A stretch of 63,382 bases of DNA, filler included, from Rhabdomonas costata (taxonomy: Eukaryota): assembly GCA_019059605.1 (NCBI GenBank). It is 40 parts of 40 records of this genome, joined end to end, with 100 filler letters (N's around TTAATTAATTAA, not from the genome) between each part and the next. Parts side by side here need not be neighbours in the genome. Positions count along the whole stretch, not along the records: positions 25,394 to 26,880 come from JAHMHO010014708.1; 39 more parts are not named here. One strand, 5' to 3'. The position numbers and the translations under genes are program-made. Position 1 is the first letter of the stretch; the number at the start of each line of letters is the position of its first letter. Of the stretch, positions 25,394 to 31,640 are shown piece after piece. Under the pieces are notes generated by a model. The model did no database searches. It was given only the letters and a program-made list of their open reading frames with translations, and was not told the origin of the DNA.

Positions 25394-26800
25394 GTGTTGG
25401 GTTGGAGTGCTTGACCACGATTACCGATGGAATTTGAAGATTCAAGTTCAACCACTTAATTAGGGACTACCACGTCAATAAGGGTGATCGTGTGGCTCAA
25501 TTGCTTTTGGAGTACATTGCGACACACCACGTGTGTGGTTACACAACTGCAGTGGAGTGTGCGATGTGAAGGCGTGTTTGGATCCTCTGAATTTGGTTCG
25601 GTTTCGGAACCACAGGCCGCTTCCGGTGTTTCAGAGCATCCGAACTCAGAAGTTATTGACCAGAATCAGACCTTAAACCGTAGTTGGACAAACAGAATGC
25701 TGCATCTTCCATTATGACGCTCCGTTAATAGAAAATGCTTATGTATCCATTTCAAAAAAAGTTTCCTGCACAAGTCGACTCATCAGCTAACATTTTGATA
25801 GCGCAAAGCGAATGCTTCGCCTCTACATCCTCAGTTAGCACCAAGAACACCTGCGGTAATCACTCCCAGATCAGTGAAGAAGCCGCTCTCCCATATGTCT
25901 GGCCTCCACAGTCTGAAAGAGGTGGAATACTCTGATCGCGACAGGCGTCTGCTGCTCGCCGCCGACCACGAAATAAAGATGTGGAAGCGGAAGAAGCTGT
26001 CTGCTCGCAATTAAGTTCAAAACCAAATCAAGCCCTCCCGTTCAGACAGATTTCACCAGAGGTGCTCAAGCTCAACGAGGAGTACAAATATTTCCAGAGA
26101 AGCTTCCACCATTGTTACCACCAGCTAGTCCTACAGATCACCGCATTGACTTCCCATAGAAGTTTCGAATACCATCTACGCGCGTAAACAGATTGACCCC
26201 CAGCTAAGATGCCGAGTTACAGCGTCAGCTAAAGGACTTGCTGTATCATCAGTACATCAAGAAGGTCACGTCTTCATACGGCTCGTCCCAAAAGTCAGCG
26301 GGAATCTGCGGATGGTGGTGAACTACAGACCCATCAACAATCTGACCATGATGAGCAAGTACAAACATTCCACTCATTGACGAGATGCTACGCCACTGCT
26401 GCAGCTCCATTGACAGATCTGATGCAGAAGGGGCGTGATTGCCCAAACCGCAGCACGCTTTTGAGTTGCTAATGTCGCGCCTTCTCCAAGCACCAGTTCT
26501 CTTGGTCTGGTAGACTGCAGCTTGAGGAAACTGAACGAGGCGCAGAAGAACTACCAGGGGCATGAAAATGATATGCTCGCCTTGGTTGATGCGCTGGAGG
26601 ATTTGAGGCACTATCTACTGAGCTGAGAGTTACACATCTACACCGATAAACCCTCTCTGCGGTACCTCCAAAACTCAGCTTATCCTTCATAGCGTCAGGT
26701 GAGATGGCCGGAAAAGCTGCAGTTGTACAGCCTCTGAATATCGCTTATATCCCCGGCAAAACTAACACTGCAGATGAAGCGTTGTACATAATCCCGCTGT
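25394..26800 (+). mobile_element. Decayed Ty3/gypsy LTR retrotransposon pol (dUTPase-PR-RT-RNase H), internally deleted
   Basis: PR-like FPAQVDSSAN (~25762-25791); LPPASPTDHRIDF; RT start PKVSGNLRMVVNYRPINNLT...IPLIDEML (~26288-26390); RNase H RKLNEAQKNY..HENDMLALVDAL..LRHYLL...IYTD...RQVRW...YIPGKTN (~26525-26770); many stops and frameshifts. Confidence 0.9.
25404..25590 (+). pseudogene. Decayed trimeric dUTPase domain within a retroelement
   Basis: Motif 3 GVLDHDYR (25404), motif 4 KGDRVAQLLLE (~25480) and motif 5 RCEGVFGSS (25562), separated by frameshifts. Confidence 0.85.
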
Positions 26801-27326
26801 TGCGTTGACGACAATTCCAGTTCCAGTTGTCCAGAAAACACCGTGCTAAAAAAGGCCGCTCGGTATCATGCGTCTGTGGTNNNNNNNNNNNNNNNNNNNN
26901 NNNNNNNNNNNNNNNNNNNNNNNNTTAATTAATTAANNNNNNNNNNNNNNNNNNNNNNNNNNNNNNNNNNNNNNNNNNNNTGGGGGGGCTCCCTTAACAG
27001 TTTGGCAGGGAGCCCATCCGGAACCACGTGTCTGTCTACAAGCAGGAAATTACAGTCAGCTTCTTGGCGCACCCGTGTAAATGAGGTTCCATCGAGGGAC
27101 CTCTGACTCATGAGATGAATCAAAATAGTGGTTTCGTGCAGGAGGTCTTTCTCCCAATTTGTGTTCTCCATTGAGGTCTTGAGAAGTATCTCATTTTATC
27201 TGGGGATGTGAGTATTAAGTGAATATAAAGGCTGCTGCTTTGCTTTCTCCTTTGTATTAGCAGCCTTTATTGTTTCGGTTTGTTTGGACCATGCTTTTCG
27301 CCAACCACGGGTGGGATCTCCCTCAG

Positions 27327-28249: not shown

Positions 28250-28569
28250 GTACGCTCCTTCGACCCCTCCGCCCCAGGTTCTCGCCCGCCTCCACGGGTT
28301 TAATCTGTTTGGTGACCCCACACACACACAATCCAGCAGGTTGGGTAGGGAGACCTCCCCTAATTAGCCGAGGATCGTCACCCAGAGGGTGATCAGTCCA
28401 CCAGTGCTTCCCGTTCGGCTCGCCCGTGCCCGAGCACCGGCTTTGGGCGCTTCTGGGCCCTGGGAACNNNNNNNNNNNNNNNNNNNNNNNNNNNNNNNNN
28501 NNNNNNNNNNNTTAATTAATTAANNNNNNNNNNNNNNNNNNNNNNNNNNNNNNNNNNNNNNNNNNNNCA

Positions 28570-29960
28570 GACTCTTCTAGTCCACTTGATGACTAGATAG
28601 GGCATCCGCAGCGACATTTTGCCTTCAGGGAATGTTGGCGATCTGAAAAGTAAACCACTGTAATTTCTCCAACCACCGTGACTTGGAAAATGACTGGGGT
28701 TCTTCTGCAAATACATCTGAACACAAAAGATAATTCCTCCATTCTTCTGACGTGTACACTAAAGCTAGAATCTACTTCTCATGAACTGGGTAGTTTTTCT
28801 CAGTGTACATCTTTCTCGAACTACACGCCACCAAAGGCATCTTGACACCTTCCCATTGCTGTGAAATCGTGGCTCCAATTCCCACCTCTGAAGCATACGT
28901 GTGAAGCACAATTGGATTTTAAAGTCTGGAAGAACCAAACTCTTCACATTTGTAGGGTTACGCAACTGCGGCCATTTATGTACGGCCACACGTTTCATCT
29001 GCTGTGGTCTAGTCCAATTTCTCCAAAAAACAAATCAACAATACTCGACTTCTGGTTGTGCAAACATACGCTTCTCTGGATTTGCAAAAAGCTTCTTTTA
29101 TCCAACCTCTGGTATAAAACCAGCAACGCTTCCGCATGGTCATTGTATGCACCTGAATGTCGTCCACGTACGAAATTGTAGTCTCTCGCAGATCCTCAAG
29201 AACAAAGTCCATGGTTTTTTGTAACCCAAACGGCATGACTCTGAATATTAACTAACCGTAATCTGTCATAAATGCCGTTCTATACACATACTCTGGATTA
29301 ATGCTAATCTGATGGAATACCGCATTCAAATTTAGTTTGTAAAACAACTTTCCCTTCAACGCGTGATCAATCATATCGCCAATTCGTGGTAATTTGGTAC
29401 GCATCTGTAACAGTGATTGCATTCAGCGGTCTGTAGTCAACGCACAGCCGCAACTACATTTGTAACAAAAAGCACTCTTGCTCCACAAGGATAGTTAGAT
29501 GGCTCTATAAAACAAATCTACGTGAGACTTTTCAGTTGCTACTGAAATTCCTCATCTTCCTCATGTGACATTAGGTACAGCCTCTGGGCTGGTACCTTAC
29601 TGTCCGGAATCAAATCAATACTGTGATCCGTCCTCACAGAAACTGTAACCGACGAAGGAAAGATGTGCGCAAATTATTGATTCAAGTTCTAGATTTTCGG
29701 AGGTTTTGGTGTCACAGCGCAAGGGGCGCCAAAAATGCTGTGGTCAAGCTCCTTAATTAACTTATCAACTTCATTTCTAGGCGAATCTTGCAACTTCCTT
29801 TTGAAATTCCACTTATGCCCTGAGCACTAGCTATAGTTCGCTGGACCTGCTTAGTCGGAGTCACCTCTTCAACCTCCACTTTGGAAATAACAACATCTGA
29901 AATCAACTCTGGAAGGGATCCGCACACTCTCACCACCATGGTCTCGCTTCTTTCTGCAAC
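28570..29960 (-). mobile_element. Decayed Ty3/gypsy RT-RNase H
   Basis: HSIDLIPD, RLCVDYRPLNAITV, LPRIGDMID, FHQI, VMPFGL, SYVDDI, EEWRNYLL, RWLEKLQ and NVAADALS in order, with stops and frameshifts. Confidence 0.92.
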
Positions 29961-30733
29961 CAAACTACATACAGCTTTTTAACTACTGGGTCATTTGTGG
30001 TGTCGCTACCCTCATTCCCTGCTACTCTGGAACCAGAAGGGCACAACACCAACANNNNNNNNNNNNNNNNNNNNNNNNNNNNNNNNNNNNNNNNNNNNTT
30101 AATTAATTAANNNNNNNNNNNNNNNNNNNNNNNNNNNNNNNNNNNNNNNNNNNNTTGTGGGTGTGTTTGGGGGGGGGTTGGTGGTGGTGGTGGTGGGCCA
30201 CGAATACTTTGTTCACTGCGTACTGTGTTCGGGCAGTGTAGTGCTGCACAGCACCTGCCCCAACTGATTTCGATCTGATCCCATGGAAACGTCACCAGGA
30301 ATTGACGATATGCATTAATTCAACGCAGCAATGTCTTGGGACCAGGACTAGGATGTGTCGAATTCCCCGTCCTGGAATGGAGCGGGAAATATTGTCCCTG
30401 AGGAGGTTAAGGAATATGGAATGTAACCCCCATCGTATTATTCTTCTAATTGTATCTGATTGGTGCCATATGGCATCATGGTGCCCAGAGGGCAGCCTTT
30501 CACACCTGGAGCTTGAGCCGAGGCACAGGAAACGGCTGCACGCTGGTCCTTGCACGGCTCGCGTATATTATGCAATCTTGTGCCGCTTCTTGCCAGTAGC
30601 AGCCGGAATGTTTGACGGGGGCACCCACAACTCAGACGAAAGCCAAAAATCATGAAAAACATTAAGAGAAAAAAAGAAAACAAAATTAAAACGAAGTCAT
30701 GGGCTTAACACTCACCCACACGGTCACACGTAG

Positions 30734-31640
30734 CCTGAGAATCTGCTGATGACCCGCGATGGGGTGGTGAAAATTGCTGACTTCGGGGTGTCCTCGCTGG
30801 AGGAGGACGCCAGCCGGTGCGTGGGGGGCACTCCGGCTTTCCTTGCCCCAGAGCTGTCCAGCGCTGAGGGCCCGGACTGCGCCACCCTGAACTGGAAGGC
30901 CGTCGACGTGTGGGTATGTTTCGGAGCTCATCGCATGCAATTATTAAGCGGTGAACGCGGCAGATGGGTTGGGTTGTCACAAAGTCTCCTCATGCCATTC
31001 TGCGTCCAAATCCACCTTAGTCGCCAGAGAACCTTGATTCCTCCGCACTGTCCGTCTCCCAAAGCTAAACTTTCCCTTTCATGCTTCAAATAGTGGTTTC
31101 GATGCAACAGAGGTTGCAGCATGAAGATGAACCGAGCTCAAACGACACATCATTAAAGATAATGGTTTTGGATTGCCGATATATGAACTGACTCGCAATT
31201 CCTAAGTGGAGAGTATTTCGAGGGCCAAATTGGTGCGCAGCGGGGACCTTTTTTATATACATTTTTACGCGACAGACCCAACTGCGATTATTCGTTATTT
31301 CTGCCCTTTTTGCCCTTGCTGCAAAAAACCCCACACAAACTGACCCAGACACGATGGTTTGGAGTACGCCAGAGAGGGTGGTAGAGATCGCACGGGCTCC
31401 ACAGTGCTCTCTCAGCACGCTTTGCAAATACACATTGGGTTGAAAAAACTCGTGAGCGCCGGTTATTTTGCGGTCTTTCCTAACTTTGGTGGTAAAACTT
31501 GGGACTGGGAAGGCCCTCGGGGTGACCACCTTCGTGCTGCTGCTCAACCACCTTCCCTTCAATGGCAAGAACGTCGCTGAGCTCTCTCACAGCATCTGTC
31601 ATGACTTGTACGTGTTGCCGGACGACGCCTCGGCAACACC
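30734..31640 (+). CDS. Ser/Thr protein kinase, CaMKK/GRIK-like, partial; exons 30734-30913 and 31513-contig end
   Basis: PENLL...KIADFGVS...GTPAFLAPE...KAVDVW|ALGVTTFVLLLNHLPF covers subdomains VIb-X. Confidence 0.92.

Follow-up and report, generated by a model that had tools for sequence, protein, structure and literature searches.

Trimeric dUTPases are defined by a set of five sequence motifs (motifs 1-5). The occurrence of a dUTPase domain in the Pol polyprotein of Ty3/gypsy LTR retrotransposons, even ahead of the protease (PR), is already known, and the novelty of the locus described here is below what the initial annotation of this DNA implied. In the account of Postia placenta given by Novikova et al. 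2010 (PMC2864245), the gypsy dUTPase lies at the N-terminus of Pol, as in PosPlaTy3-3, between PR and RT, or at the C-terminus; elements of Phanerochaete and Tuber are described there as carrying the domain as well, and independent acquisition from different sources has been suggested. According to Rodriguez et al. 2017 (PMC5408684), who describe the domain as rare among retrotransposons, the order is PR-dUT-RT in three lineages of bdelloids; in the giant gypsy elements of planarians, Arkhipova and Yushenova 2019 (PMC6431247) place a dUTPase in that same position. PR-dUT-RT is the usual order in the known dUTPase-bearing gypsy elements (PMC5408684, PMC6431247). In the literature searched, at the level of titles and abstracts, no retrotransposon with a dUTPase was found described for Euglena or any other protist.

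The locus considered here is a contig of 1487 nt in which a remnant of a dUTPase precedes a relic of gypsy pol. Like this contig, the fungal elements (PosPlaTy3-3, -4 and -5, the elements of Phanerochaete chrysosporium and Tuber Tmt1) are described as having a trimeric-type dUTPase beside a chromovirus-like pol; in them PR, RT and RNase H (RH) adjoin the dUTPase, whose position within Pol is variable and includes the N-terminus (PMC2864245). The two are likened by description only, and the contig, in contrast to the fungal elements, is one dead fragment with no intact ORF or LTRs within its length, from a host that is probably not a fungus. In Juno, Vesta and TelKA of bdelloid rotifers and in the planarian giant gypsy elements, the dUTPase lies inside a retrovirus-like Ty3/gypsy Pol (PMC5408684, PMC6431247). 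Their PR-dUT-RT order would suit the contig, provided that a protease is located upstream of its 5' end; as described, however, their dUTPase is intact and common to whole lineages, whereas the domain was found in none of the 26 long relatives of the contig. The betaretrovirus layout, the order of domains that the initial annotation had proposed for the contig, has the dUTPase directly N-terminal to the protease and released from the polyprotein; the contig, by contrast, has no demonstrable protease, its RT and RNase H are of Ty3/gypsy and not of retroviral type, and no chain with a retroviral name is found among the 12 PDB matches to its dUTPase piece. The chromoviruses, which have a chromodomain integrase (P0024, P0082, P0141 and others), match the contig in the RT N-terminus, the tether and RNase H at 30-49% identity. 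The long relatives of this kind are without a dUTPase, whereas the contig is without an RT core, and its integrase and chromodomain would lie beyond the contig end.

The dUTPase and pol relics

The window, that is, the whole 63,382-nt stretch of DNA that was analysed, is made up of 40 separate contigs of 1483-1495 nt each and 39 artificial linkers, which are runs of N around TTAATTAATTAA. Since the contigs are joined by artificial linkers, readings across any linker are artefacts. The dUTPase and gypsy finding is confined to one contig (Table 1) and therefore has no wider genomic context; this contig starts at dUTPase motif 3, its cut 5' end, and ends inside pol on both sides. Across the window, dUTPase-like sequence at E<0.01 occurs in this contig only (1 of 40), and gypsy relics occur in two of the 40. 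The second of these, 28568-30054 on the minus strand, is a different Ty3/gypsy pol relic with RT (YVDD box) and RNase H. Its identity to the metagenome ORF P0006 reaches 50%, its similarity to contig 25394-26880 is distant, and no dUTPase-like sequence was found in it. On another contig, an open frame on the plus strand (30734-31093) resembles a portion of the catalytic domain of a protein kinase and contains VKIADFGVS. A scan of the whole window against Rfam matched no family.

Table 1. Features of the contig, in coordinates of the window
Feature	Position	Strand	Basis or remark
Contig with the whole finding	25394..26880	+	1487 nt; N/TTAATTAATTAA linkers on both sides
dUTPase C-terminal-half remnant, trimeric-type	25396..25609	+	Frameshift-aware alignment, Pfam, PDB, Atlas
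dUTPase motif 3, GVLDHDYR	25404-25427	+	Forward-frame translation
dUTPase motif 4, KGDRVAQLLL	25480-25509	+	Forward-frame translation
dUTPase motif 5, RCEGVFGSS	25562-25588	+	Forward-frame translation
Spacer	25610..26033	+	424 nt; no detectable protease homology
Pentapeptide VDSSA	25774-25788	+	Proposed protease active site
RT N-terminal part and region just upstream	26034..26390	+	5 frameshifts, 2 in-frame stops; alignment to L005
RT-core deletion junction	26389..26390	+	~504 nt / ~200 aa missing; comparison with Ty3 and L005
RT-RNase H connection (tether) remnant	26389..26504	+	13/16 residues identical to L005 over YATAAAPLTDLMQKGR
Second deletion, ~97 nt	~26504	+	Removes RNase H start; comparison with L005
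RNase H remnant into start of integrase-proximal region	26503..26822	+	3 frameshifts, 2 in-frame stops

The three dUTPase motifs that had been reported on one strand (3, 4 and 5) were all found, at 25404-25588; they follow each other in proper order and spacing within 185 nt, each in another forward frame, with motif 3 reading DYRW and motif 5 RCEGVFGSS. Motifs 1 and 2 are not seen because the contig begins at motif 3. In Pfam, a 43-aa piece that surrounds motif 4 from stop to stop matches PF00692 with E=0.0014 and 18.8 bits and the whole frame with 13.6 bits, so that the gathering cut-off of this family (22 bits) is not reached, and the pieces with motif 3 or motif 5 alone have no Pfam match; so low a score is to be expected of a domain that frameshifts have broken into stretches of 20-30 aa. 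Among the PDB sequences matched at E<=10 by the frame 3 query, 11 of 12 are trimeric dUTPases. The top match is 3p48 (E=0.0077; 3p48 and 3f4f both at about 0.008), which together with 3f4f we take to be yeast dUTPase, followed by 3c2t, 3c3i and 3ca9, presumably the chlorella virus enzyme, a chain named shrimp dUTPase, and 4oop and 2pc5, assumed to be from Arabidopsis. The dUTPase piece thus resembles, at the level of sequence, cellular and large-virus enzymes, and such matches, none of them named retroviral, fit a separate acquisition of the dUTPase.

Comparison with phages and with the Atlas feature search points to the same family. All seven tblastn matches to phage records at E<=10 fall at dUTPase positions; four of these records are annotated as dUTPase, three are unannotated Staphylococcus phage records, and the trimeric dUTPase of Mollyvirus is the top match among the phages. 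The Atlas search groups the piece with clusters of dUTPases (0.94). When contig nt 1-260 are aligned with the Mollyvirus dUTPase and frameshifts are allowed, the score is 98, whereas shuffled sequences give 30.6+-4.6 (maximum 43; 0 of 200 reach the observed score); two Staphylococcus phage dUTPases aligned in this way give z=9.8 and z=7.1. The traceback against the 201-aa Mollyvirus reference covers its residues 125-198, with 33 of 75 positions identical, and puts frameshifts at about 25447 and 25526; a third, at about 25401, is doubtful (two to three in all). The sub-threshold PF00692 match, the PDB matches and the alignment score together uphold the trimeric type originally assigned to the domain. 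To judge by its sequence, the remnant is a dead pseudogene, not an enzyme, and represents the C-terminal half of a dUTPase of trimeric type.

The contig as a whole is best explained, from the homologies of its pol part, as one dead copy of a Ty3/gypsy LTR retrotransposon, chromovirus-like in type and with internal deletions. RNase H is recognised by Pfam (RT_RNaseH, PF17917) at 26507-26728 in frame 1 with 57.4 bits (cut-off 24.8) and E=1.8e-15, by the Ty3 RT/RNase H structures 4ol8 and 7q5b among PDB sequences (E=6.5e-8 and 1.6e-7, frame 1), and by a profile built from 134 relatives, which scores 97.5 bits on the contig. Two stretches of the contig that match Ty3 are 250 residues apart in Ty3 (residues 129 to 379) and 48 codons apart in the contig, which indicates that about 200 aa of the RT core are missing. 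In the environmental contig L005, the nearest relative, nt 403 to 934 correspond to contig nt 969 to 996, and the ~504 nt missing between them are the RT core, which bears YIDD in L005. No YxDD box was found in the three forward-frame readings of the contig, and there is no Pfam match to RVT_1. Of the gypsy RT and RNase H reported by the initial annotation, RNase H and the RT N-terminus are therefore retained, the former on PF17917 and the Ty3 matches, but the RT core is deleted and its YxDD box is absent. The alignment to L005 places eight frameshifts and four in-frame stops in about 790 nt of pol. The decay by frameshifts and stops described earlier is real and goes further, since at least 10 frameshifts, four in-frame stops and two internal deletions are counted in the contig.

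The spacer and the order of the domains

A protease had been placed between the dUTPase and RT on the strength of the pentapeptide VDSSA, about 190 bp behind the dUTPase motifs. The distance is accurate, VDSSA beginning 186 nt after motif 5, but the protease is not sustained: apart from the pentapeptide, Pfam, a profile of relatives and frameshift-aware alignment all leave the spacer without protease homology. Pfam protease families match no frame or ORF of the spacer, and no retropepsin was returned by the PDB sequence searches of the contig frames. The best score of a protease profile built from 20 relatives is -0.5 bits, and that match lies outside the spacer. When the protease regions of 12 relatives were aligned with contig nt 190-700 in a frameshift-aware manner, z ranged from -1.2 to 0.9, and 11 to 56 of 60 shuffles reached the observed scores. 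By chance, the relaxed pattern D[ST][GS]A appears in 87 of 5000 spacer shuffles (1.7%) and, when a hydrophobic residue has to come before it, in 24 of 5000; this low rate is suggestive, but for a pattern that was picked post hoc. VDSSA lies 104 codons ahead of the RT anchor, and D[ST]G[AS] lies 144-167 aa ahead in seven of the eight relatives having the motif. A protease recognisable by Pfam is present in 20 of 26 long relatives, against none in the spacer. Comparison of the spacer with the region upstream of pol in the second gypsy contig (28568-30054) gave nothing above noise (best E 0.6). A second RNase-H-like stretch at contig nt 490-600, suggested by weak tblastn matches, was rejected, as it scores -2.1 bits with the RNase H profile and has no Pfam match.

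The forward frame remains open for 42 codons beyond motif 5 into the spacer, and three phage dUTPases end 1-9 residues past the GFGS(T/S)G (or GWGSSG) motif. An open run of such length past motif 5 arises in 561 of 5000 shuffles, and at this chance rate the open frame lends slight support to a dUTPase that was part of the element.

As for the order dUT-PR-RT-RH proposed at the outset, the dUTPase does lie ahead of RT and RNase H, but no protease is detectable between them. Two orders thus have to be considered, and they appear roughly equally probable: dUT-PR-RT, in which the protease would have decayed until unrecognisable and probably have become shorter, and PR-dUT-RT. In the latter, which fits as well, the protease may be situated upstream of the point at which the contig is cut, and this order would directly explain the missing protease signal in the spacer.

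Relatives of the element and the origin of the proposed linkage

A search of the representative library with the frame 1 translation yielded 1990 proteins at E<=0.001, the best 150 of which all match through the RNase H region; the query was frame 1 only, so the ranking is by RNase H, motifs 3 and 4 and the spacer lying in frames 2 and 3. When these best 150 were aligned back onto the contig with tblastn, the matches were collinear in shifting frames (contig nt 629-892, 883-969, 975-1043 and 1132-1341), and none was significant before contig nt 600. The 26 long relatives are, by Pfam, ordinary Ty3/gypsy polyproteins with retropepsin in 20 and a chromodomain in 13. Two proteins that are chromovirus-like relatives by RNase H have accessory domains of other kinds: P0141 has a Dam adenine-methyltransferase-like stretch before the protease (residues 39-109, E=5.1e-6, under the Pfam cut-off), and in P0135 a SET domain (residues 961-1058) separates RNase H from integrase. 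The Dam-like stretch recalls the DAM-LTR elements presented in a 2026 preprint.

Scanning of metagenome contigs with the RNase H alignment gave 16 loci, of which seven short ones are 42-69% identical to the contig. These environmental contigs (L004-L010) belong to the same retrotransposon family, the identity being that of amino acids over the RNase H segment. From contig nt ~654 on, L005 (1733 nt) runs collinear with the contig at 55-69% amino acid identity; the frameshift-aware identities are 72 of 120 residues in the RT N-terminus, 13 of 16 in the tether and 65 of 107 in RNase H. L005 keeps the RT core (YIDD) but is itself broken by one frameshift and one stop. Because this nearest relative starts at contig nt ~584, the dUTPase region is not covered by it. 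Viral contigs scanned with the RNase H alignment and the L005 RT contained no relatives.

Among these relatives, dUTPase was found neither by PF00692 in the 26 long proteins, nor by motif patterns in the top 150 representatives, nor in the 16 metagenome loci, where the best match had E 0.13 and lay on the opposite strand. Likewise, the protein, viral-contig and metagenome searches found no second copy in which a dUTPase is joined to RT or RNase H, the metagenome relatives being too short to reach this region. Word-index searches with frame 1 against longer proteins, and with the dUTPase piece against longer and shorter proteins, were empty, which is weak evidence, and an exact look-up of five contig ORFs in a collection of 15 billion proteins found none present.

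Whether the dUTPase belonged to the element has to be judged from its arrangement with pol. The claim that dUTPase and gypsy pol form one unit holds in so far as both relics lie on one strand of one contig, but ownership by the element rests on adjacency in one dead copy, and a single dead copy cannot prove that the dUTPase belonged to it. The end of the dUTPase and the first detectable pol homology are collinear on the same strand, 424 nt apart, and the density of decay is alike in the two parts (two to three frameshifts in ~215 nt of dUTPase; eight frameshifts and four stops in ~790 nt of pol). Given the common strand, the collinearity, the open frame past motif 5, the like decay, the restriction of dUTPase-like sequence to this one contig of the window and the precedent in other elements, the remnant was probably, with moderate confidence, once a domain within the Pol polyprotein that the element itself encoded, and dUTPase and pol presumably once formed one reading frame.

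Two other explanations place the dUTPase outside the element. The remnant may instead be a pseudogene of a host dUTPase, or of one from an integrated large DNA virus, that came to lie beside a 5'-truncated gypsy relic by nested insertion and deletion and was never the element's own. The cellular or large-virus character of its PDB matches, the Mollyvirus enzyme at the top of the phage matches, the lack of a dUTPase in every set of relatives examined (0/26, 0/150, 0/16) and a spacer without homology of element type are all in keeping with such an origin. So are the deletions, at least two in this copy, since a contig with two internal deletions could have undergone a further rearrangement that joined unrelated DNA; giant-virus-like integrations and chimeric or nested elements are, moreover, described for Euglena gracilis in a preprint, which is relevant only if the contig is of euglenid origin, as initially annotated. 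We nevertheless regard this explanation as unlikely, because it requires the coincidence that the pseudogene of a single-copy gene came to lie exactly at the site that an accessory Pol domain would occupy. The remnant is also on the same strand as pol and just 424 nt from it, its density of decay is similar, and its frame stays open for 42 codons after the position at which the three phage dUTPases end. Fusion of a dUTPase fragment with a repeat-derived gypsy fragment by a short-read assembler, somewhere at ~25590-26034, would account for a spacer without recognisable homology. Fragmentation of the assembly is extreme, every one of the window's 40 contigs being ~1.49 kb long, and gypsy relics are repeats, present in two of them; however, no repeat common to other contigs of the window marks the join, the comparisons giving self-matches and weak protein-level matches to the second gypsy contig, and a chimera of this kind is considered quite improbable.

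If the dUTPase was indeed borne by the element, the contig could be the fossil of a protist, possibly euglenid, chromovirus-like family that captured a dUTPase of eukaryote or giant-virus type in an event separate from the captures in fungi, rotifers and planarians. This fuller reading is possible but doubtful; an independent capture is not contradicted by the 26 long relatives, none of which has PF00692.

Predicted function and meaning of the proposed linkage

The contig copy itself does nothing. In a live copy of the element, the dUTPase domain would, by analogy with retroviral dUTPases, hydrolyse dUTP to dUMP and pyrophosphate in or near the reverse-transcribing particle. The lower dUTP level would reduce the incorporation of uracil into the cDNA, and with it the breakage and mutation driven by uracil-glycosylase, and the benefit would be greatest in cells with little dUTPase of their own. 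The function of the dUTPase in a live element is inferred from the retroviral case.

As one dead fragment on a 1.5-kb contig, the locus neither opens nor tests a new question. Kinetoplastids, which would be close relatives of a euglenid host, use a dimeric dUTPase that is unrelated to the trimeric type, and if the host resembles them in this respect, the element would bring in a class of enzyme that the host may lack. If the linkage of dUTPase and pol is true, a protist lineage would join the short list of organisms (fungi, rotifers and planarians) with dUTPase-carrying LTR retrotransposons, and the view that uracil-free cDNA is a recurring need of retroelements, repeatedly met by gene capture, would be strengthened.
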